This document shows positions 891 through 58,165 of a DNA stretch of 64,000 bases, in pieces. Location: sequence record OR757435; one strand, 5' to 3'. This stretch comes from Escherichia phage vB-EcoP-XT32. The notes below the pieces were generated by a model. The model was not told the DNA's origin and ran no database searches. It was given only the letters and a program-made list of their open reading frames with translations. The translations under genes were made by a program, and so were the position numbers. Position 1 is the first letter of the stretch. Each line of letters starts with the position of its first letter.

Positions 891-1142
891 TCAAACACAA
901 GCAGGGAGAGTAATGATTTTATACTGACCTTCAAACTCTCCAAATAAACCCAAGAATGTAGGACTGTAAGTACCAGTACAAACAAACTCGTCAAACAATG
1001 CGTTATAGCTAGGCTTAATCTTCCAAGCCCATACATAACCCATCTTGTCAATTGCAATGTAACGAGTGTTCAGAGGAACAGTCATCATCACATCACTAAC
1101 TGCGATCGCTTTAGTTATTGGTGCAGCTTGGAAGTTTTTCAT
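891..1142 (-). CDS. hypothetical protein, repeat-containing
   Basis: 83-aa ORF; motif RYIAIDKMGYVWAWKIKP echoed in the downstream ORF. Confidence 0.4.
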   Translation of the reverse strand: MKNFQAAPITKAIAVSDVMMTVPLNTRYIAIDKMGYVWAWKIKPSYNALFDEFVCTGTYSPTFLGLFGEFEGQYKIITLPACV

Positions 1143-1363
1143 CCTACTCTCCTAACATTTAGGGTAGCTTGATAGTATTTGACAGGGCAAGTTCTATCAA
1201 AGGTGAATCTTGTTTCAGGATTCTTTATACAGATAGCATGTCTGTGCATAACCTTCATGTATAAAGGAGGTTTTGTATCCCCGTCTATTTCTAGAGAGAA
1301 TACATCACCATTACGTAGACTACCAAAAGTATTATCTTTAGGTTCAGAGTGGACGATAATCAT
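1139..1363 (-). CDS. hypothetical small protein (GDVF-motif family)
   Basis: 74-aa ORF, ATGA overlap with neighbour; NGDVFSLE motif shared with 2118..2336 and 2337..2594. Confidence 0.45.
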   Translation of the reverse strand: MIIVHSEPKDNTFGSLRNGDVFSLEIDGDTKPPLYMKVMHRHAICIKNPETRFTFDRTCPVKYYQATLNVRRVG

Positions 1364-1371
1364 ACTTTACC

Positions 1372-1536
1372 TTTGATAAAAATATCATTACCACAGACAC
1401 AGCATGAACGAACAACAGTAGCGCCACGCTGAACGATACGAACCTCTTCCTTAACCAGATTAACACGAGCACCACAGCAAGGAGAGTTAACATAAGAGTA
1501 ACCAGCTTGTGTATTCTTGATTGTTTGCTTAGACAT
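1372..1536 (-). CDS. hypothetical zinc-ribbon-like small protein (54 aa)
   Basis: ATG at 1536 with GAGGAAG RBS; protein MSKQTIKNTQAGYSYVNSPCCGARV...SCCVCGN has paired Cys motifs; below ORF-track length cutoff. Confidence 0.4.
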
Positions 1537-1587
1537 TTGAGCTTCCTCTTGTTAGTTTAAGTAAGAGTTGTCCCTTAATTAAAACAA

Positions 1588-1620
1588 CAAAGGCCGCCCG
1601 AAGGCAGCCTTTTATTTATT
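1588..1620. terminator. hairpin flanked by T-tracts on both strands (bidirectional terminator candidate)
   Basis: aaAGGCCGCCcgaaGGCAGCCTtt stem-loop followed by TTTATTTATT on plus and TTGTTGTTTT on minus. Confidence 0.45.
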
Positions 1621-1759
1621 AACTGTTATATGTCCAATTACCTTGCTTGTTACGAATAGCCGACATTGCATGAACCCAGAAGCCTTCCAGTTTCAGAGCA
1701 CCGTTAGCTACTGCATCCATACGCTCAGGGCGGTTCATACGTTTGGTTGATACTTTCAT
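1619..1759 (-). CDS. hypothetical small protein (46 aa)
   Basis: ATG at 1759 to TAA at 1619; weak RBS; below ORF-track cutoff. Confidence 0.25.
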   Translation of the reverse strand: MKVSTKRMNRPERMDAVANGALKLEGFWVHAMSAIRNKQGNWTYNS

Positions 1760-2117
1760 ACCTATCTCTCTTTGTTAGTGGAGGCATTATTGCCAGTTGA
1801 TATAAGGGATAGCCCTAGTCAGTAGACTAATCCTGACCGCGTACTCATTGCCGACCTTCTCTGCCTAAGAGTTCAGGTTCTAGAGCTATCTCTTATTCCA
1901 ACTGGTGAAGACTCCCTACCCCTAGGAAGTCTCCTGAATCCCAAACCAATACGTACCCCTACATACCGGAAAGTCTTTCGAAAATTAACAGGTTTTAGTC
2001 TAGCACCGGATGTTTGAGCAAGCTCTCCCTAGCGGTGTGGCATATGCCTGAATTAATAAGTTAATGAGGAACACCCTCACATAGCCCTCTGGTAAACACA
2101 AGGGCTATAAGTCGGTG

Positions 2118-2336
2118 TTACTTTTGGGATAAACACAGATCAGGACGTGGCATAATAGTGGTTGATAGACCGAAGACTTCAACATAACCACTGCTCAAGT
2201 TAGCAGCCTTACACAAACCATCAAGGGTTTTATCTTCTAGCATCAGCCAGAAACGTTTATCGTAAGAGAAAACATCACCACCCTTAACGTCTTCTGCATT
2301 TGCATATTTAGGATAATCAACCACTTTAATTTCCAT
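2118..2336 (-). CDS. hypothetical small protein (GDVF-motif family)
   Basis: 72-aa ORF; motif KGGDVFSYD. Confidence 0.45.
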   Translation of the reverse strand: MEIKVVDYPKYANAEDVKGGDVFSYDKRFWLMLEDKTLDGLCKAANLSSGYVEVFGLSTTIMPRPDLCLSQK

Positions 2337-2594
2337 TCACTTACCTTTATTAGTAATTACTGCATCTGGGATAAGGATTACAGGAAGTTTTGAATTGAGC
2401 TTCATAACCTGATTAGTTCTTAAACCAAGCACAACTGTTCCAGAATCTTTCCTGTTCGACTCGGTTACGTGTGGAGTGAATAAACTAACAACCAAATAAT
2501 GATCGACGCGTGTAGCTTTAACTTGGAACACATCTCCAAGCTTTAAATCACCCACTGTAAGGTCTGGGTCTTTTAATTCAAGATCAATCTTCAT
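2337..2594 (-). CDS. hypothetical small protein (GDVF-motif family)
   Basis: 85-aa ORF immediately abutting 2118..2336; motif KLGDVFQVK. Confidence 0.45.
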   Translation of the reverse strand: MKIDLELKDPDLTVGDLKLGDVFQVKATRVDHYLVVSLFTPHVTESNRKDSGTVVLGLRTNQVMKLNSKLPVILIPDAVITNKGK

Positions 2595-2841
2595 CTTTAG
2601 CCTCGATGTTAGTTATGTGGAGATCATTGCGCACTTGGCAGACTTCGTTTTTGCTGATAACAATAAGCTCTCCAGAAACCACGTTAACACAATTGACGTG
2701 ATAGTCAGTTGTTAATCCGGTTCTGATATAGAGAGAACCTTTAAAATGAAACAGAGCACCCGGCCTCATGTTATTTAAACGAAGTGTAGTATGATCAGGC
2801 TTAATATTAACTTTCACTGTTAATCTCCTGCTGTTTAGCAA
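2584..2841 (-). CDS. hypothetical small protein (distant member of GDVF family)
   Basis: 85-aa ORF; motif RPGALFHFK at the equivalent position. Confidence 0.4.
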   Translation of the reverse strand: MLNSRRLTVKVNIKPDHTTLRLNNMRPGALFHFKGSLYIRTGLTTDYHVNCVNVVSGELIVISKNEVCQVRNDLHITNIEAKDED

Positions 2842-3103
2842 TAGCTACTCGCAAGTCTTCATTAGCACGAGCAAGGCGCAATACTTCATGGTTGAGATTC
2901 TGAAGACGCTTGTTTCTGTCCTCTACTTGCATAATAAGATCATTAAGCGTTGCTTTAACTTTCTCATTATACATCTCATCCACTCGGACTAGAGATCTAT
3001 ACATTCTCTCCCAGCTTGCTGCTTTGTTTCTGAGAACAATAAATCCTATAACGCTGATAGTTAAACAGCTTACAAAAAGGAATTTATATACTTCTAAAGT
3101 CAT
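2807..3103 (-). CDS. hypothetical membrane-anchored coiled-coil protein
   Basis: 98-aa ORF; hydrophobic N-terminus (FLFVSCLTISVIGFIVL) then charged helical region. Confidence 0.45.
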   Translation of the reverse strand: MTLEVYKFLFVSCLTISVIGFIVLRNKAASWERMYRSLVRVDEMYNEKVKATLNDLIMQVEDRNKRLQNLNHEVLRLARANEDLRVAIAKQQEINSES

Positions 3104-3302
3104 ATTATTTACCCTTTATCAGAGATTAAAAGTAATATTATTTAAGTAAGTTATATTTAGTAAACTTATTTTCTAAGAAATTTTCAAAGGGTCTATATAC
3201 AGAGCATTACCCATAGTCCCAGAATACTACCATCTTTTTCAATAAATTTACTAAGTGGTTGGTTTATAAAGGAATTTAGTTTGTCAAATCTGGCACTAGT
3301 GA

Positions 3303-3692
3303 TTATTCCCTAGAGCTATTATCGAACACTAAATCACCACAATACATAGGATTGGCATACCATTTTGGCACCCCTTCGCTCTTACTCTGAAAGTAAGTCC
3401 CACTATACAGAGGAACATAATTCTTCTTAAGGGCACGTTTAGCAAGTCGCTCGCTTTCTCCAATGGTTTGCCTAGTCATCGGATTTTTATCACGAACCAG
3501 CTTTACATAACGTTTATAAGGTTTCTCCTGTTTTAATAGTACCGGAATCCACTCAAACTGGTTCTTTTGTCTTATCACCTGTTCAGCGGTCAGTTTTCGT
3601 TGAGCCATTCTATTTATCACGGTATCCGCAACCATAGCTTTACATGCGGTTGGCTGGTCCCCTGCCTCATAATAAATAGTCAATGTCAACAT
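3303..3692 (-). CDS. cell-wall hydrolase, SleB/Hydrolase_2-like
   Basis: IYYEAG...CKAMVADTVINRM, QFEWI and YFQS...WYANP resemble the SleB-type hydrolase signature (IYGEARGE...VA.VI.NR ... QF ... YF.NP). Confidence 0.55.
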   Translation of the reverse strand: MLTLTIYYEAGDQPTACKAMVADTVINRMAQRKLTAEQVIRQKNQFEWIPVLLKQEKPYKRYVKLVRDKNPMTRQTIGESERLAKRALKKNYVPLYSGTYFQSKSEGVPKWYANPMYCGDLVFDNSSRE

Positions 3693-3740
3693 TAGCTGGG
3701 CCGTTGTTATCAGAACTTGCTACCTCCTGTTTTACGGGCA

Positions 3741-3770
3741 TAAAAAAGCCCCAGCCGTAGCCGGGGCAAA
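3741..3770 (-). terminator. rho-independent terminator (minus strand)
   Basis: Minus-strand RNA GCCCCGGC-uacg-GCUGGGGC (8-bp stem with one G-U) followed by UUUUUA. Confidence 0.6.
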
Positions 3771-3932
3771 CCTGAAAGCAATACATGACTATTGCAGTAA
3801 AAACACTCGTAAATGCGCTTACGGCAACGACAAAAGCCGCTCAAAGGCGGCTATGCGGAAGCTTCAAATGGGGAGAAGGCACGACGCGATAGAAAGAGCG
3901 TCATAGTACTAAAAGAGGGGACTATATTCCTA

Positions 3933-4376
3933 CTACTTAACCCTTGCCTCTTTGATGGGGTCAATGTATTTTTCAACTCCCCATTTGTGTTTGCTATCTG
4001 CGTAGAATACATCAGGTGCACACTGACTTGTCTTAGGAAAAGCCTGCGGGTCTTTCGTGCTACCTTTAAATTTCTGTTTACCACGGGTGCGACCATTACA
4101 GAAGATTTCTAACTTCTTCTCCTCTTCTGTTTTAGCTCCCCCGCTCTGTAATAAAGAACGTTTGTGATCGGCTAACAATAACGCATCAGCACGATGGACG
4201 CGATGGCCTACACGTTTTGCCACACTAGAAGGGATATGAGATTCAGCTTCAGCCTTTGCAGCACGACGTTTTAAACTGCGCTTACTGACGTGATTGGTTG
4301 CCTTCGGCTTCTCTTTCTCCAGTTCAGAGATAGAAAAACAACGCCCGCCCTTCATGCTGATTTTAGATTTAGCCAC
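3933..4376 (-). CDS. hypothetical basic protein
   Basis: 147-aa Lys/Arg-rich ORF; no confident motif. Confidence 0.4.
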   Translation of the reverse strand: MAKSKISMKGGRCFSISELEKEKPKATNHVSKRSLKRRAAKAEAESHIPSSVAKRVGHRVHRADALLLADHKRSLLQSGGAKTEEEKKLEIFCNGRTRGKQKFKGSTKDPQAFPKTSQCAPDVFYADSKHKWGVEKYIDPIKEARVK

Positions 4377-5152: not shown

Positions 5153-5180
5153 AAGGCGCTACCCGTTAAGATAGCGCCTT
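5153..5180 (-). terminator. rho-independent terminator
   Basis: Perfect 9-bp stem AAGGCGCTA/TAGCGCCTT with 10-nt loop, T-rich tracts on both sides; sits just downstream of 5203..6102. Confidence 0.6.
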
Positions 5181-5202
5181 ATGTTTATTTAGATTGTCTT
5201 AC

Positions 5203-6102
5203 TTATGCCGCCTGACGTGCCGCCATAATCTCAGCCGCTTTACGCAATACTTCTTCCTCTTCTTCTTTCGCAGCTTGTTCGGTACGGATTGCAACTGTTG
5301 AAGAGATACGACCGCGCAGATTATCCAATTTTTCCTGCATTTTTGCGATGGTTGATTCCATTTCATCGGCATATGAATCAAGTGATTCCAGCTCCTTGCT
5401 TGATGCGTTCATCAGATAGTCGACAGAGATCGCTCCCGTTGAAGCCGTGACTTTCTTGATGAGTGAATCAAAGGACTTTTTAACTTTCCCCACTTCTTCA
5501 CTCAAGGCAATAGTATTATCACTGGTAGCGCCGTTGCGCTCATCAGCCAGCAATTTGGCTTCAATACGGATTGCATTCAAGCGTTCAACTAAGGCGTAAA
5601 TATCTTGGTTAAAATCTTCCTTATTTTTCGCCGGGATTTGAAGGTGGGCCGCCACGTTGTCATTGCAACCTTTGTAAAAGTTAGGATTATCGACTTCAAT
5701 TTCACGACCGAGGGCAAAATTTTCGAAAGCATTTGACCAGCGAGCGCGGTTTTGTTCCATTTTGGCCTTAATTTGCGCTTCTTTCGCATCTTCTTTCGCT
5801 TTCGCTTCACCTTCCAGATTAATCCACTTCTTACGCCCATTTGCCGCATCGGTGTTAAACTTGATCGGAGTCAGGAAAGTAATTGCAGTGGCAATCACAT
5901 CCATATCGCGGAAACGTTCGGTTAACAGAAAATCGACCGCCGCCTGCAATACGTCCAGCTTTTTACCATTGCTACGGAAGTGCTGCAAGTGCCCTAACAG
6001 AAAATTAGAAACATCTTGTTTGATCGCCGCGTTATTGCTGCGAATGTTGTTAGCCAGTGCGTTAAAACCAGATTCTTTAACCAGATTAAAAATTTTAGCC
6101 AT
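5203..6102 (-). CDS. hypothetical protein (299 aa), helical and charged
   Basis: Long ORF; start moved from GTG 6111 to ATG 6102 with AGGTGA RBS; no recognisable catalytic motif. Confidence 0.55.
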   Translation of the reverse strand: MAKIFNLVKESGFNALANNIRSNNAAIKQDVSNFLLGHLQHFRSNGKKLDVLQAAVDFLLTERFRDMDVIATAITFLTPIKFNTDAANGRKKWINLEGEAKAKEDAKEAQIKAKMEQNRARWSNAFENFALGREIEVDNPNFYKGCNDNVAAHLQIPAKNKEDFNQDIYALVERLNAIRIEAKLLADERNGATSDNTIALSEEVGKVKKSFDSLIKKVTASTGAISVDYLMNASSKELESLDSYADEMESTIAKMQEKLDNLRGRISSTVAIRTEQAAKEEEEEVLRKAAEIMAARQAA

Positions 6103-6203
6103 GATATTCACCTTTCAATTGTAAGGGCACTATGCCCCGCTCTCTATGAGCTTTTTAAGTCGCCATTGACTTATCGATAATCACTCATTGTTAAGTAATT
6201 ATT

Positions 6204-6251
6204 GATAAGGGGGGCGGTCTTGTCAGGAGTTAACCTTGCCGCCCCCTTATC
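6204..6251. other. long inverted repeat / stem-loop
   Basis: GATAAGGGGGGCGG (6204-6217) pairs with CCGCCCCCTTATC (6239-6251) around a 21-nt loop; not followed by a T-tract. Confidence 0.5.
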
Positions 6252-6924
6252 CGTGGTGTTTCAACTGGTATCTTTAATTAGTCGCTATAAACCAAGCCGA
6301 CCTGATAGCGATGATCAATCACCACAATAAGGCAGTGCGTCCGACTCTAATTAGTTACATTGATGTAACCGTCGGCAATATCGTTTACTTTGCTTTCGCT
6401 CCCGCCTATCCTTTTATATCAGCTCTCTTTCGCTAGTCATCGCCCACTATGGGATACTATTGCGAAAGAGTCACTAACCGCCTATTATTCCGGCGTTTTA
6501 TATCTTTCGGCGAGTTTACTACATAAACCGACTATGTACTTTCATCATAAGACGAATCTCAAGCCGTTCGCATCGTAAACGTTCACACTAAACCTTATTG
6601 TTAAATAGCAATTTGCTACCCTTTAACCATCCCCCGCCGCTCTCAATTGAGCGTTATTTCGTCGGACTTGTCTGCCCTGATTAACTTATTTCACTGTAGC
6701 ACCGTGTTAGCGATGGCCGCCGCTACCCTTAACCGTGGGCGATTAGCTTAAACCGTTGCGTGTACTCAATGAATCCGCTTATCAGTGGTGACGTTTCCAG
6801 TTAAGGGATTGTAAAACTGTTTACCCTGATGGTTTAGGGAGTTTTACGCCGTTTTATCTGGTATGCTTTCCGATGGTTATTATCTTCCAGCATATTTAAC
6901 CGATATATGGGGACGTTTAAATTA

Positions 6925-7558
6925 TTAAAGAGCGGTAAATCTGTCAGCGTGCTTTCTCACGCTACGCAACTGTAAGCCGTTGTTTCGCTTTTCACTGAAG
7001 CGGTGATTTGCCTAGTGAGTACGCTCATTATGGACCATGATGTTTTTGCTGTCAACCGCTTTTTTAATCTTTTTCGTCGTTCCCGCTATTGGGAGGATAT
7101 ATCAACCAGCTTTATTTGATTGAAGATTAAGCGATAAGGCTTAAACTTATGATCCATATTGTTAAAGAGCGTTTTTAGCCTTTTATAGTGTCTGCTAATC
7201 ACTGCATCATTAAAGGCTTACTTATTCATTAACGGGGCGCCTACTCCCGAACTACTCGCTGCACTATGTGCCACCTTTCCCGCGATACGTTGACTTGGGA
7301 ACTAGTTAACGTTGTTTTGTTAACTTGTGGTTAGTATGAACTACCTTAACCACGTTTGCAACCTCTTTTTTATCATCTTCTTTTATTCTTTTCCCTTATC
7401 TCGCTTGAATCTATGCGAAAGGGCAAGATGATAAGTTTTTAAAGAGCGGGGATGTTTCACGTCATCGCTGACTTATGCTCATTATAGGTTAGGCTTTCCA
7501 GTTGTCAAATACTTTTTCAAGTATTTTTTCACTTTCTAGCCTGATTTTTAAAGAGCGG
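6925..7558. repeat. four dispersed copies of TTAAAGAGCG(G) in an ORF-free region
   Basis: Copies at 6925, 7162, 7439 and 7548; two share the longer TTTTTAAAGAGCGGGG. Confidence 0.5.
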
Positions 7559-7844
7559 GGCAATTTCTTGCCTTGTATGTTTTTCATCGTACCCGATGAA
7601 TTGAAGTATACGCCAACCAGTGAGTAATGCAATAGGGCAAAGCAAATTATTTTAAACTTTTTCGTAGAGGAGTAGGTAAAGGAACGCGCACGCGAATAAC
7701 ATACTAAAACAGGCTTGTAAAGCACTATTTGACGCTCTCAGACGCATCACAATGAGCTAAAGGAGGGTAAGGAATACAATCACCTTAGAAATGAGAAAAG
7801 CCTCACTAGGAGGCTTATAGGAAGGATTTAGAGCATCAGATAGA

Positions 7845-8168
7845 CTATCGGCACATACCGGAAAGCACAGGATTACCATTAAGATTAGATTCCGCATCTC
7901 GATAATAGATAATGGCAACCGTTTTCCCATCTTCCGTAGGAACAACCCGAAGAATTGAACCATCTTTCCGGTTATCATAGATTACAGCCTTTAAGCCATT
8001 TTCTAAAGTGATAACCTCAGTAGCGGACCAAGTCTTACCTAAAGCGGTGAGATTTTTAGCACCATTAGAGGCTGTGACCACTCCAATGCTTCCGCATTTC
8101 ATGTATGCGCTAGCACTACCAGCAAACAAAGACAAACCAACAGCCAAGCCAACGATTAACTTCTTCAT
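7845..8168 (-). CDS. exported protein (signal peptide)
   Basis: MKKLIVGLAVGLSLFAGSASA N-terminus; AGGAG RBS. Confidence 0.5.
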   Translation of the reverse strand: MKKLIVGLAVGLSLFAGSASAYMKCGSIGVVTASNGAKNLTALGKTWSATEVITLENGLKAVIYDNRKDGSILRVVPTEDGKTVAIIYYRDAESNLNGNPVLSGMCR

Positions 8169-8247
8169 TTTTAAACTCCTAACATTATGACAGCATAGAA
8201 AAGGCCCATTGCACCGACAATGGTCAAAAAGAACAGGCCCACAAGGA

Positions 8248-10360: not shown

Positions 10361-10845
10361 ACGGGGAACATACAACCGCAGGACAGACCACGGGGGAACA
10401 TTGCCAGATAGTGCGGTAATAATATACCACTTAAATAATTGTATAACTCAAACATCAAACGTTAAAAGAAAAAGACCAACAGAACGCTGAAAAAGGAAAG
10501 GAATAAACATCAATAAAAACAATCATTCTTAAAAGAATTATTAAAAGAAATATAATCATCCACTTAATTAATACATACATCATTATTGCACTCATAATAA
10601 CAACTATTGAAACTATTTACATTCAAACTATGGGGGAAGTGGGTAGTACAACACTGACGTTGTTGGTAACTAGGGGGTATTATATCGCCTATTCATAGTG
10701 CCTTAATCTAATCATTATCAGACCTATATCAGTGACTAGCCTTTCATCCATTCAGTAAAGGGGAACTAAATAAACGGGTAGGTAATGTATTGGGTAGTAT
10801 ACACGGGGGAATAATTACGGGGAGTAGGCACGGGGAAAGGTTGGA
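10361..10845. repeat. cluster of short G-rich direct repeats ACGGGG(G)AA / GGGTAG flanking an A-rich tract
   Basis: acggggaacat (10361), acgggggaacatt (10391), tgggggaag (10630), aggggaac (10760), acgggggaa (10803), acggggag (10818), acggggaaag (10831); extreme A-richness at 10400-10620. Confidence 0.45.
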
Positions 10846-10990
10846 ACGTGGAAGAAGGTGTAAAGGCATTGCCAATAACCATTTTTTATTTGAGGACTCC
10901 CCCTTTTTAACAATTCGCCGCAGAGGGCCTAGCCCCACTCGGTCAAATCAGAATTTTGAACTGTTATATATAAGCTTAAGAGAGAACTTA

Positions 10991-19965: not shown

Positions 19966-20028
19966 AGACCTATACAAGCTAGTGTGTAATGTATATTCTT
20001 TGTCTACATATAACAAGGAGGACAACCT

Positions 20029-46058: not shown

Positions 46059-46391
46059 TATTAATTTCCTTATTTAATTTGAAAGATTGTTGCTCTCTTT
46101 GAGCGGTTATGTATAGTATACATTACGCTTATACCGATAAGGGTACTATATAATATAAGTATCTTTGGTAGTAGATATAACACACTAGTAATGTATATAT
46201 TGTATAGCTAGTAAAGCTATTGCAGGCTTGTATATTGGGCAATCATCGTAACCCTTGCAAGTACCGAAGGGCAGGAGACACCTGCGAGATAAAAATAGAG
46301 AATTGAGGAAATCCTTGATTTAGGTTGAGGACTCCTAGGACTTTGATTCTCTATTAAAATCAAAAGAAAACTTAACTTAAAACAATAACTT

Positions 46392-56952: not shown

Positions 56953-57447
56953 NNNNNNNNNNNNNNNNNNNNNNNNNNNNNNNNNNNNNNNNNNNNNNNN
57001 NNNNNNNNNNNNNNNNNNNNNNNNNNNNNNNNNNNNNNNNNNNNNNNNNNNNNNNNNNNNNNNNNNNNNNNNNNNNNNNNNNNNNNNNNNNNNNNNNNNN
57101 NNNNNNNNNNNNNNNNNNNNNNNNNNNNNNNNNNNNNNNNNNNNNNNNNNNNNNNNNNNNNNNNNNNNNNNNNNNNNNNNNNNNNNNNNNNNNNNNNNNN
57201 NNNNNNNNNNNNNNNNNNNNNNNNNNNNNNNNNNNNNNNNNNNNNNNNNNNNNNNNNNNNNNNNNNNNNNNNNNNNNNNNNNNNNNNNNNNNNNNNNNNN
57301 NNNNNNNNNNNNNNNNNNNNNNNNNNNNNNNNNNNNNNNNNNNNNNNNNNNNNNNNNNNNNNNNNNNNNNNNNNNNNNNNNNNNNNNNNNNNNNNNNNNN
57401 NNNNNNNNNNNNNNNNNNNNNNNNNNNNNNNNNNNNNNNNNNNNNNN
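56953..57447. other. assembly gap (495 N)
   Basis: Continuous run of n characters. Confidence 1.
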
Positions 57448-57556
57448 GTTTCTTAGCAATACGAGCCTCTTTGCGAGTGTCAAACAATTTGATGCTATCT
57501 TTTCTCGTGTGTTGATCAAGATCCCAAACAACACGAATCGCCCACATCTTTTTCAT
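57448..57556 (-). CDS. hypothetical small protein (MKKxW family), 3' end lost in assembly gap
   Basis: N-terminal MKKMWAIRVVWDLDQHTRKDSIKLFDTRKEARIAKK then N-run. Confidence 0.35.
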
Positions 57557-57765
57557 TAGTAATGTACCTTTCCGCTGATATAAACACGACCAGAAGAATA
57601 CTCCTTGGCCTTATGGATACTGATACTATTGACCACGTCACCAGTAAGCATAGTCTTTTTAAAATCTCGAGCCTGTTGACGAGTAGGAAGTGCAGTCATA
57701 GTCATACCACCTGATGCCCACTTAATCTTTGCTAACCAAAACTGTCTCATAGTGATTGGTCTCAT
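57556..57765 (-). CDS. hypothetical small protein (MKKxW family)
   Basis: 69-aa ORF; ...TRQQARDFKK motif. Confidence 0.4.
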   Translation of the reverse strand: MRPITMRQFWLAKIKWASGGMTMTALPTRQQARDFKKTMLTGDVVNSISIHKAKEYSSGRVYISGKVHY

Positions 57766-57962
57766 TAATAATAAACCTTGCTGTTGGCAAAAAGAGCACC
57801 TTCGTTATTCACAATAGCTTTTCCTATTGTAACCTTATTGAGTCTAAAAGTAGACTTGTATTGGTTTTTGACCCTACGGGCGTGTTCTCGAGTGTTAATA
57901 AAATCTACAGCTACCAAGTCTCCAGTCGTATCATCATGTACACGAACAATCCACTTTTTCAT
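57765..57962 (-). CDS. hypothetical small protein (MKKxW family)
   Basis: MKKWIVRVHDD ... NTREHARRVKNQ. Confidence 0.4.
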   Translation of the reverse strand: MKKWIVRVHDDTTGDLVAVDFINTREHARRVKNQYKSTFRLNKVTIGKAIVNNEGALFANSKVYY

Positions 57963-58165
57963 TTTACTAAACCCTTCATATAGTTATAAAGATCGTTAGA
58001 GGCTTTACCCCATTCAAGGTGCTTCTTATCCATATAGCTCTTACAAGCTTCTTTACTGCTTTCGACGCATATATCAAATTGATGACATGCTCGACCAAAT
58101 GTCATAGCTTTTAATTGAACCTCGGTAGTCAAACCTTTCAGTTCTTGGAACTCTTCTTCAGTCAT
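57959..58165 (-). CDS. hypothetical protein
   Basis: 68-aa ORF, ATGA overlap with neighbour. Confidence 0.4.
   Translation of the reverse strand: MTEEEFQELKGLTTEVQLKAMTFGRACHQFDICVESSKEACKSYMDKKHLEWGKASNDLYNYMKGLVK

Follow-up and report, generated by a model that had tools for sequence, protein, structure and literature searches.

A gene-free region of phiEco32-like coliphages combines host-type early promoters, repeated boxA elements and a large structured RNA

Modification of RNA polymerase by boxA and Nus factors is textbook knowledge for the ribosomal RNA (rRNA) operons, rrn, and for lambdoid phages; NusB-NusE (S10) loads at boxA and, together with NusA, NusG and SuhB, gives rise to a fast, Rho-resistant polymerase complex that assists RNA folding. 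GOLLD, ROOL and OLE are RNAs of more than 500 nucleotides (nt) with many covarying helices that are associated with phages or bacteria, and large structured RNAs without a known function are, to our knowledge, rare. Here we describe a gene-free region of Escherichia phage vB-EcoP-XT32 (sequence record OR757435) in which repeated elements that we read as boxA and an RNA of about 850 nt are encoded on the minus strand; positions refer to the whole stretch of 64,000 nt that was analyzed (the window). For rRNA, the main role of the Nus factors is now seen in RNA folding and not in protection against Rho (PMC5725501), and boxA elements are also found upstream of CRISPR arrays (Stringer 2020, PMC7665894) and of suhB (Baniulyte 2017, PMC5725501). 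The coliphage group in question is poorly studied (PMC11990801), and the antitermination strategy of the related phage 7-11 has been described as "to be defined" (PMC8948821).

We consider it likely that the region is the front of a minus-strand early operon that looks like an rrn operon, with host polymerase, modification at boxA, an RNA of about 850 nt and one gene. Positions 5200-8200 are 99.9% identical to Escherichia phage vB-EcoP-XT18, and about 97 phiEco32-like podoviruses (subfamily Gordonclarkvirinae) share 80-95% identity with the window. In phiEco32, genes 124 and 125 flank the counterpart of the gap, which is some 2.8 kb away from the right end of the genome. An earlier note on this DNA, which had read the + strand, described the region as free of open reading frames (ORFs), and indeed positions 6103-7844, flanked by minus-strand genes at 5203-6102 and 7845-8168, hold no credible ORF. 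The longest ORF between the flanking genes amounts to at most 78 amino acids (aa), whichever strand is read, and 6103-7033 stays open for no more than 41 codons at a time on the transcribed strand. The start of the downstream gene is the ATG at 6102, where the ORF listing gives a GTG at 6111. With a GC content of 0.40-0.43 the region has an ordinary composition, and a scan for tRNAs and tmRNA returned nothing.

Four copies of TTAAAGAGCGG had been noticed on the + strand, and all of them are present within 6925-7558, three of them exact (6925, 7439, 7548) and the one at 7162 with a single mismatch. At up to one mismatch, TTAAAGAGCGG occurs five times in the 64 kb, where 1.06 occurrences are expected, and none of 100 shuffled sequences reached five. 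As the genes on either side are encoded by the minus strand, the motif is to be read as its reverse complement, CCGCTCTTTAA. When read in this way, all four copies match perfectly the gamma-proteobacterial boxA consensus GYTCTTTAANA (PMC5725501). Six matches to this consensus are present in the window (0.6 expected); those on the sense strand are only the four copies of the spacer, and the remaining two are antisense to genes. The transcribed strand of 40 related loci (284 kb) carries 150 boxA matches and the opposite strand 3, and three to five perfect copies were found per locus, first in 13 and then in 40 loci. Across 25 genomes boxA is invariant although its flanks are mosaic: the sequence between promoter and boxA varies among phages, and whole modules have been swapped. 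Judged by its sequence and by its site downstream of promoters, the repeated motif is boxA and not a promoter.

Two + strand occurrences of CCGCTCTC, at 6137 and 6637, were considered as inverted boxA copies and rejected, as they form arms of RNA hairpins (helices 38 and 18). A search for tandem boxA in 2.9 million viral contigs gave matches at about the chance level for 18 specified bases. The only conspicuous match was in Corynebacterium phage P1201 (NC_009816; positions 2236-2900 of locus L052), where seven perfect 109-bp tandem repeats each contain GAGCTCTTTAAAAAT; this 109-nt spacing equals that between boxA-3 and boxA-4, probably by coincidence since P1201 is an unrelated phage of an actinobacterium.

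Each boxA copy is preceded, at a distance of 20-160 nt on the minus strand, by a sigma70-type promoter (Table 1). For phage SU10, three early promoters "between CDS120 and CDS121" have been published (S2 Table, PMC4281155), and the early-promoter arrangement of phiEco32 is the same as in SU10 (PMC4281155). These published SU10 promoters are the ones upstream of boxA-3, boxA-2 and boxA-1. In other relatives, the P2 module carries a different, stronger promoter, either TTGACA-16-TAGAAT or the SU10 promoter at 73668, and the P4 of relatives reads TTGCAA-16-TATACT (9/12) and is located 48-53 nt before boxA. In the window, P4 falls below the scan threshold and is therefore the weakest of our feature calls. 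A promoter cluster for a phage sigma-like factor had been among the candidates of the earlier note; the cluster itself stands, on the minus strand and composed of early promoters of the host sigma70 type, but its assignment to a phage sigma factor does not.

Small hairpins usually precede boxA. The stem of the hairpin at boxA-4 is kept in spite of sequence changes (GGCAAGgaaaCTTGCC in MN05, GGCAGG..CTTGCC in IME267), and the hairpin before boxA-1 shows three compensatory pairs with 100% pairing and has a loop, GAGAAA, which resembles the rrnB P2 leader hairpin. In 67 of 82 distinct upstream contexts the 3' arm of a hairpin ends at most 12 nt from boxA, and the 40-mers upstream of boxA have a mean minimum free energy of -7.0 kcal/mol, compared to -4.7 kcal/mol for random or shuffled sequences (p ~1e-11). 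The rrnB P2 leader displays the same order of promoter, hairpin and boxA, and up to 18 nt are identical in some relatives (GCTCTTTAACAATTTATC). The sequence of the hairpin varies among modules and phages, which argues against a specific hairpin-binding protein. A further, long hairpin at 7368-7438 lies directly 3' of boxA-3, with an outer stem UUAUCAUCUU/AAGAUGAUAA and an inner stem GCCCUUUCGC/GCGAGAUAAGGG. This element recurs after boxA in many relatives; read from the other strand it has a T-run behind it and so might act as a terminator of antisense transcripts.

Between boxA-1 and the ATG at 6102, about 830 nt contain neither a promoter nor a boxA copy and are as conserved as the adjacent coding sequence (CDS). 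A structured non-coding RNA, which had been another of the earlier candidates, is strongly supported here, comprising about 850 nt with extensive compensatory covariation. Alignment A1 consists of 25 distinct genomes and its fold was obtained with RNAalifold, resulting in 239 pairs with 99.2% of the cells paired. In 74 of these pairs both sides have changed, compared to 34.2 ± 3.3 in shuffled alignments (none of 500 reached 74, counts that are not probabilities because the sequences are related) and to 5-9 when partners were slid. With the covariation bonus switched off, the RNA retained 78 compensatory pairs and 2.8% broken cells, whereas in the same genomes the CDS gave 25 pairs and 11.3% and the antisense strand 53 pairs and 4.8%. 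Similarly, when a structure was predicted from a single genome, the remaining 24 genomes kept 94-96% of it paired and showed 64-79 compensatory pairs (71-85% and 15-26 pairs for the CDS). The sense strand is superior to the antisense strand in both fold and covariation. The 867-nt RNA has a folding energy of -278.7 kcal/mol, compared to -218.1 ± 7.8 kcal/mol for shuffled sequences (z = -7.74). The inverted repeat of 13-14 bp that had been reported at 6204-6251 was found again, with arms GATAAGGGGGGCGG and GCCGCCCCCTTATC and a one-G bulge; no U-run follows it on either strand. In the consensus fold boxA-1 is mostly unpaired, with two of its bases in a long-range helix lacking covariation support.

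The RNA is non-coding, and its fold is supported by covariation. Variable columns are distributed over the codon phases as 127/132/136 in the RNA and as 88/58/250 in the CDS (p = 8e-36), single-base gap runs predominate in the RNA alignment (467 over 25 rows), and all frames are closed. A hidden protein-coding gene was rejected on these grounds, namely the lack of substitution periodicity, the non-triplet insertions and deletions, the stop codons and the shortness of the longest open run. Several GenBank records annotate short ORFs in the spacer; at 2603-4273 of locus L011 (101114UKE3) and at 1414-3004 of locus L025 (CHD5UKE1), for instance, 9-11 "hypothetical proteins", each 30-50 aa long, occupy both strands. 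Both the covarying RNA and the boxA modules are overlapped by these short ORFs, which are almost certainly spurious over-annotation. With the covariance models of Rfam 15 no match at the gathering threshold was obtained in the 64 kb and only noise at E ≤ 10 in 6000-7900, the weak Ysr197 matches of the permissive search falling on boxA copies. An origin from the host was rejected since no blastn match was found in 5,426 E. coli genomes. An invariant 24-mer of the RNA is confined to the same phage group (5 IMG/VR and 8 metagenome contigs).

Table 1. Features of the minus-strand unit, in the order of transcription
Feature	Position	Strand	Remarks
Intrinsic terminator of the upstream (rightmost) early operon	7798..7816	-	AAGCCTCCTAGTGAGGCTT then TTCTCATTTC; right edge of the unit
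Promoter P4, putative	7605..7632	-	TTGCAT-16-TATACT; most upstream; read from sequence
boxB-like hairpin	7559..7572	-	GGCAAgaaaTTGCC; abuts boxA-4
boxA-4	7546..7556	-	GCTCTTTAAAA; perfect consensus match
Promoter P3	7481..7508	-	TTGACA-16-TATAAT; 12/12; homologous to SU10 early promoter at 73996
boxA-3	7437..7447	-	GCTCTTTAAAA; 33 nt after the -10 of P3
Promoter P2, putative	7333..7361	-	TTGCAA-17-CATACT; weak, 8/12; A-rich tract upstream; read from sequence
boxA-2	7160..7170	-	GCTCTTTAACA (ACGCTCTTTAACAAT); 12/13 bases as in rrn boxA
Promoter P1	7027..7055	-	TTGACA-17-CATAAT; 11/12; kept in all relatives; homologous to SU10 73511
Structured non-coding RNA	6124..6990	-	about 39 helices; covariation-supported fold
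boxB-like hairpin	6946..6963	-	AGCGUGagaaagCACGCU; 10 nt 5' of boxA-1; helix 3 of alignment A1
boxA-1	6923..6933	-	GCTCTTTAATA; invariant in 25 genomes; largely unpaired between helices 4 and 5
RNA domain I	closed by 6909-6921/6622-6634	-	consensus fold
RNA domain II	closed by 6592-6601/6324-6333	-	consensus fold
RNA 3' hairpins	6124-6323	-	consensus fold
Long stem-loop	6204..6251	-	helix 34/35 of the RNA; 5/7 core pairs with compensatory changes; 100% paired
299-aa gene	5203..6102	-	phi32_124 homolog; phrog_13018; always downstream of the RNA
Intrinsic terminator ending the unit	5153..5180	-	12-bp stem then TTCTTTTATC

Also, more distant relatives were studied. A protein search on contigs of 22-96 kb revealed homologs of the 299-aa protein, some sharing 68-70% and others 47-50% identity. 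A gene-free gap of 3.0-3.4 kb stands before the gene in all four contexts examined, and each of these divergent gaps contains two to three perfect boxA copies, all on the sense strand and the last one 901-936 nt before the ATG, together with sigma70-type promoters and homology to the RNA as detected by nhmmer (E 1e-109 to 3e-20). Although the divergent sequences were left out when the fold was derived, 52-77% of the pairs are kept in a sequence-only alignment, compared to 29-50% for slid pairs, and each relative shows 34-53 both-sided changes. Two of the divergent relatives are recovered by a covariance model built on the best sub-domain, and the resulting alignment shows both-sided changes in 16 of 31 pairs. 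Neither a sense-strand boxA nor a profile or covariance-model match to the RNA was found in Salmonella phage 7-11 and Cronobacter phage GAP52, which were formerly grouped with phiEco32 and are now in another family. Loci L163, L165, L166 and L168 have, at about positions 1100-3000, an extra 1.5 kb or so upstream of the boxA modules, adjoining divergently oriented genes.

The intrinsic terminators at 7816-7798 and 5180-5153 delimit a unit that therefore consists of promoters with four boxA copies, the RNA, one gene and a terminator. At the site homologous to the first of them a terminator is annotated in SU10 and 4E8, and the one after the gene is also annotated in SU7, 4E8 and WFI101126. For the 299-aa protein no Pfam family, a PHROG without known function and no sequence match in the PDB were obtained, and its predicted model (pLDDT 78) has no structural neighbour and no recognisable fold. 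On the other side of the unit, the minus-strand gene at 7845-8168 encodes 107 aa with a signal-peptide-like N-terminus and without a Pfam or PHROG match. Its counterpart is phi32_125, dubiously annotated as "terminase" in relatives, and because the homology of most relatives to the window ends at about 7848, the gene looks like a lineage-specific replacement of phi32_125.

In the rrn-like operon that we favor, host RNA polymerase would start at three to four tandem sigma70 promoters and read leftwards, and each transcript would carry a small hairpin and then boxA within 20-160 nt. NusB and NusE would be loaded at boxA and, by inference from the known systems, NusA, NusG and SuhB as well. The polymerase modified in this way would transcribe the RNA of about 850 nt, with its roughly 39 helices, at high speed and unhindered by Rho, perhaps with help for its folding, then continue through the 299-aa gene and stop at the intrinsic terminator. 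Binding of Nus factors, and antitermination or chaperoning as its consequence, are proposed here by analogy; the folding role that Nus factors have for rRNA may apply here too, because the phage RNA is also highly structured.

Several points weigh against this interpretation. P2 and P4 are weak promoter matches in the window. A GU-rich boxC of the rrn type was not seen 3' of boxA when the sequence was inspected by eye, no formal search having been made. The RNA is G-rich and highly structured, and so may resist Rho alone, in which case boxA would serve speed or folding and not antitermination. For the long-range pairing 6930-6940/6106-6116, which would enclose the entire RNA, there is no covariation, and 8 cells are broken; covariation is partly inherited among related sequences. 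The two most divergent relatives keep only 52-61% of the pairs in a sequence-based alignment and are missed by the sub-domain model. Finally, a literature search, whose scope did not extend to the primary papers on phiEco32 transcription (Pavlova 2012, Savalia 2008), so that a prior mention is possible, found no paper linking boxA or a structured RNA to phiEco32-like phages.

As to its role, the RNA might act in trans, form a ribonucleoprotein (RNP) with the downstream protein or be a cis-acting leader. With some hesitation we propose that it represents a new family of large structured RNAs of Gordonclarkvirinae, made early and in quantity by an rrn-like cassette and with a function of its own. 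It might, for instance, be a scaffold for the 299-aa protein or form an RNP with it, or serve as a decoy that occupies factors of ribosome biogenesis, RNA processing or defence. It seems rather unlikely to us that the RNA is only a cis-acting 5' untranslated leader of the 299-aa gene, governing its stability, translation or timing, with boxA merely blocking Rho. Such a leader would fit an RNA that ends about 20 nt before the Shine-Dalgarno (SD) sequence with no terminator between RNA and gene, and that always co-occurs with the gene, divergent relatives included. Also, a predicted long-range helix pairs sequence adjacent to boxA-1 with the SD region, and boxA-dependent occlusion of an SD sequence is known for suhB (PMC5725501). 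However, the SD-pairing helix lacks covariation and is broken in TH42 and TH43, about 850 nt with some 39 covarying helices far exceed the needs of known bacterial or phage leaders, and the conservation of the RNA equals that of coding sequence.

With three to five perfect boxA copies per genome behind strong promoters, and one boxA for each promoter where T7 has a single one, the copies could be thought of as a sponge for NusB/NusE that starves host rrn operons or competing lambdoid prophages during takeover. We regard this as improbable, since a boxA right after each promoter is what a cis-acting modification of the polymerase requires, and the conserved downstream RNA would not be needed by a sponge.

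A role at the level of DNA, as a replication origin, packaging site, genome end or set of sites for DNA-binding proteins, is more improbable still. The length of the non-coding stretch, its repeats and inverted repeat, and its location close to one end of the genome might suggest it, and a genome terminus or packaging site had in fact been suspected by the earlier note, but the 193-bp terminal repeat of phiEco32 maps to 10738-10909, about 3 kb away. Also, the motif is strongly strand-specific (150 versus 3), and compensatory changes over 39 helices are not expected of DNA that binds proteins. A function as RNA rather than DNA is indicated by the G-U pairs in the helices and by the better folding and covariation of the sense strand as compared to the antisense strand. 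The sequence at 10738-10909 has 85% identity to the terminal repeat and is situated at a switch of gene strand and GC skew; it is likely to be the physical genome end.

The sigma factor of phiEco32, gp36, has the published promoter consensus tAATGTAtA, 6-8 nt upstream of the start (PMC4281155). That the motif marks promoters of the gp36 homolog, as might be supposed for a repeated intergenic motif in a phage encoding its own sigma factor, is hardly credible, as the spacer contains no exact copy of tAATGTAtA (TAATGTATA; exact copies in the window are at 19987, 35733, 46117, 46189 and 52313) and the motif matches boxA and lies downstream of sigma70 promoters. A cluster of TAATGTATA on both strands at 46107-46206, with exact copies at 46117 (-) and 46189 (+) and near-matches at 46107 and 46198 in a kilobase of GC 0.349, is probably a divergent middle/late promoter region. 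Elsewhere, an AT-rich island occupies 57001-58000 (GC 0.213, compared to about 0.41 in the rest of the window).

What appears to be new is a probable boxA-based modification of polymerase that is organized as per-promoter cassettes in a virulent phage and drives a large RNA of an undescribed family. Widespread, therapeutically used virulent coliphages appear to use boxA without an N-type nut site, which offers a testable answer to the question of how these phages push host polymerase through long untranslated DNA. Because these phages grow on E. coli K-12 derivatives, deletion, probing and cryo-electron microscopy of the RNA are feasible. If our interpretation is true, the RNA would be among the largest functional RNAs encoded by phages in a genetically tractable E. 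coli system.

The closest resemblance is to the rrn leader (P2, boxB hairpin, boxA, boxC), which shares with the phage unit one or more sigma70 promoters, a hairpin, boxA within tens of nt and a long structured untranslated RNA; the phage unit, too, stops at an intrinsic terminator. The boxA of the phage (ACGCTCTTTAACAAT) is identical or nearly so to that of E. coli rrnB (CTGCTCTTTAACAAT), whose leader reads CTGCTCTTTAACAATTTATC. In contrast to rrn operons, the phage has its own boxA for each tandem promoter and a protein gene after the RNA, and its RNA resembles neither rRNA nor any sequence of E. coli. As a minimal parallel, T7 is likewise a virulent podovirus; its tandem strong host promoters (A1, A2, A3) are near the genome end that is transcribed first, and a perfect boxA follows them. 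In its genome (NC_001604, locus L170) the boxA consensus is matched only once, at 813-823, which is 63 nt downstream of A3 and some 100 nt ahead of gene 0.3; this element has presumably been described as boxA before. However, T7 has one boxA for three promoters, a leader of about 100-430 nt and no large structured RNA.

With the nut sites of lambda the phage unit shares boxA on early phage transcripts and, by analogy, the recruitment of host Nus factors. A lambda-type nut site was considered and rejected: in lambda, boxB follows boxA and binds N, whereas the phage hairpin is 5' of boxA and varies in sequence (no search for an N homolog was made). The boxA elements of CRISPR arrays and suhB are similar as examples of use outside rrn operons, taking polymerase through a long untranslated RNA or regulating a downstream gene. 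Those are single chromosomal copies, whereas here multiple copies stand ahead of a structured RNA in a virulent phage. GOLLD, ROOL and OLE resemble the phage RNA in size class, covarying helices, phage association and the lack of a known biochemical function. The phage RNA differs from them in having no Rfam match even at E ≤ 10, in its host range, as it belongs to Gordonclarkvirinae coliphages, and in being placed inside an rrn-like unit of promoters and boxA.

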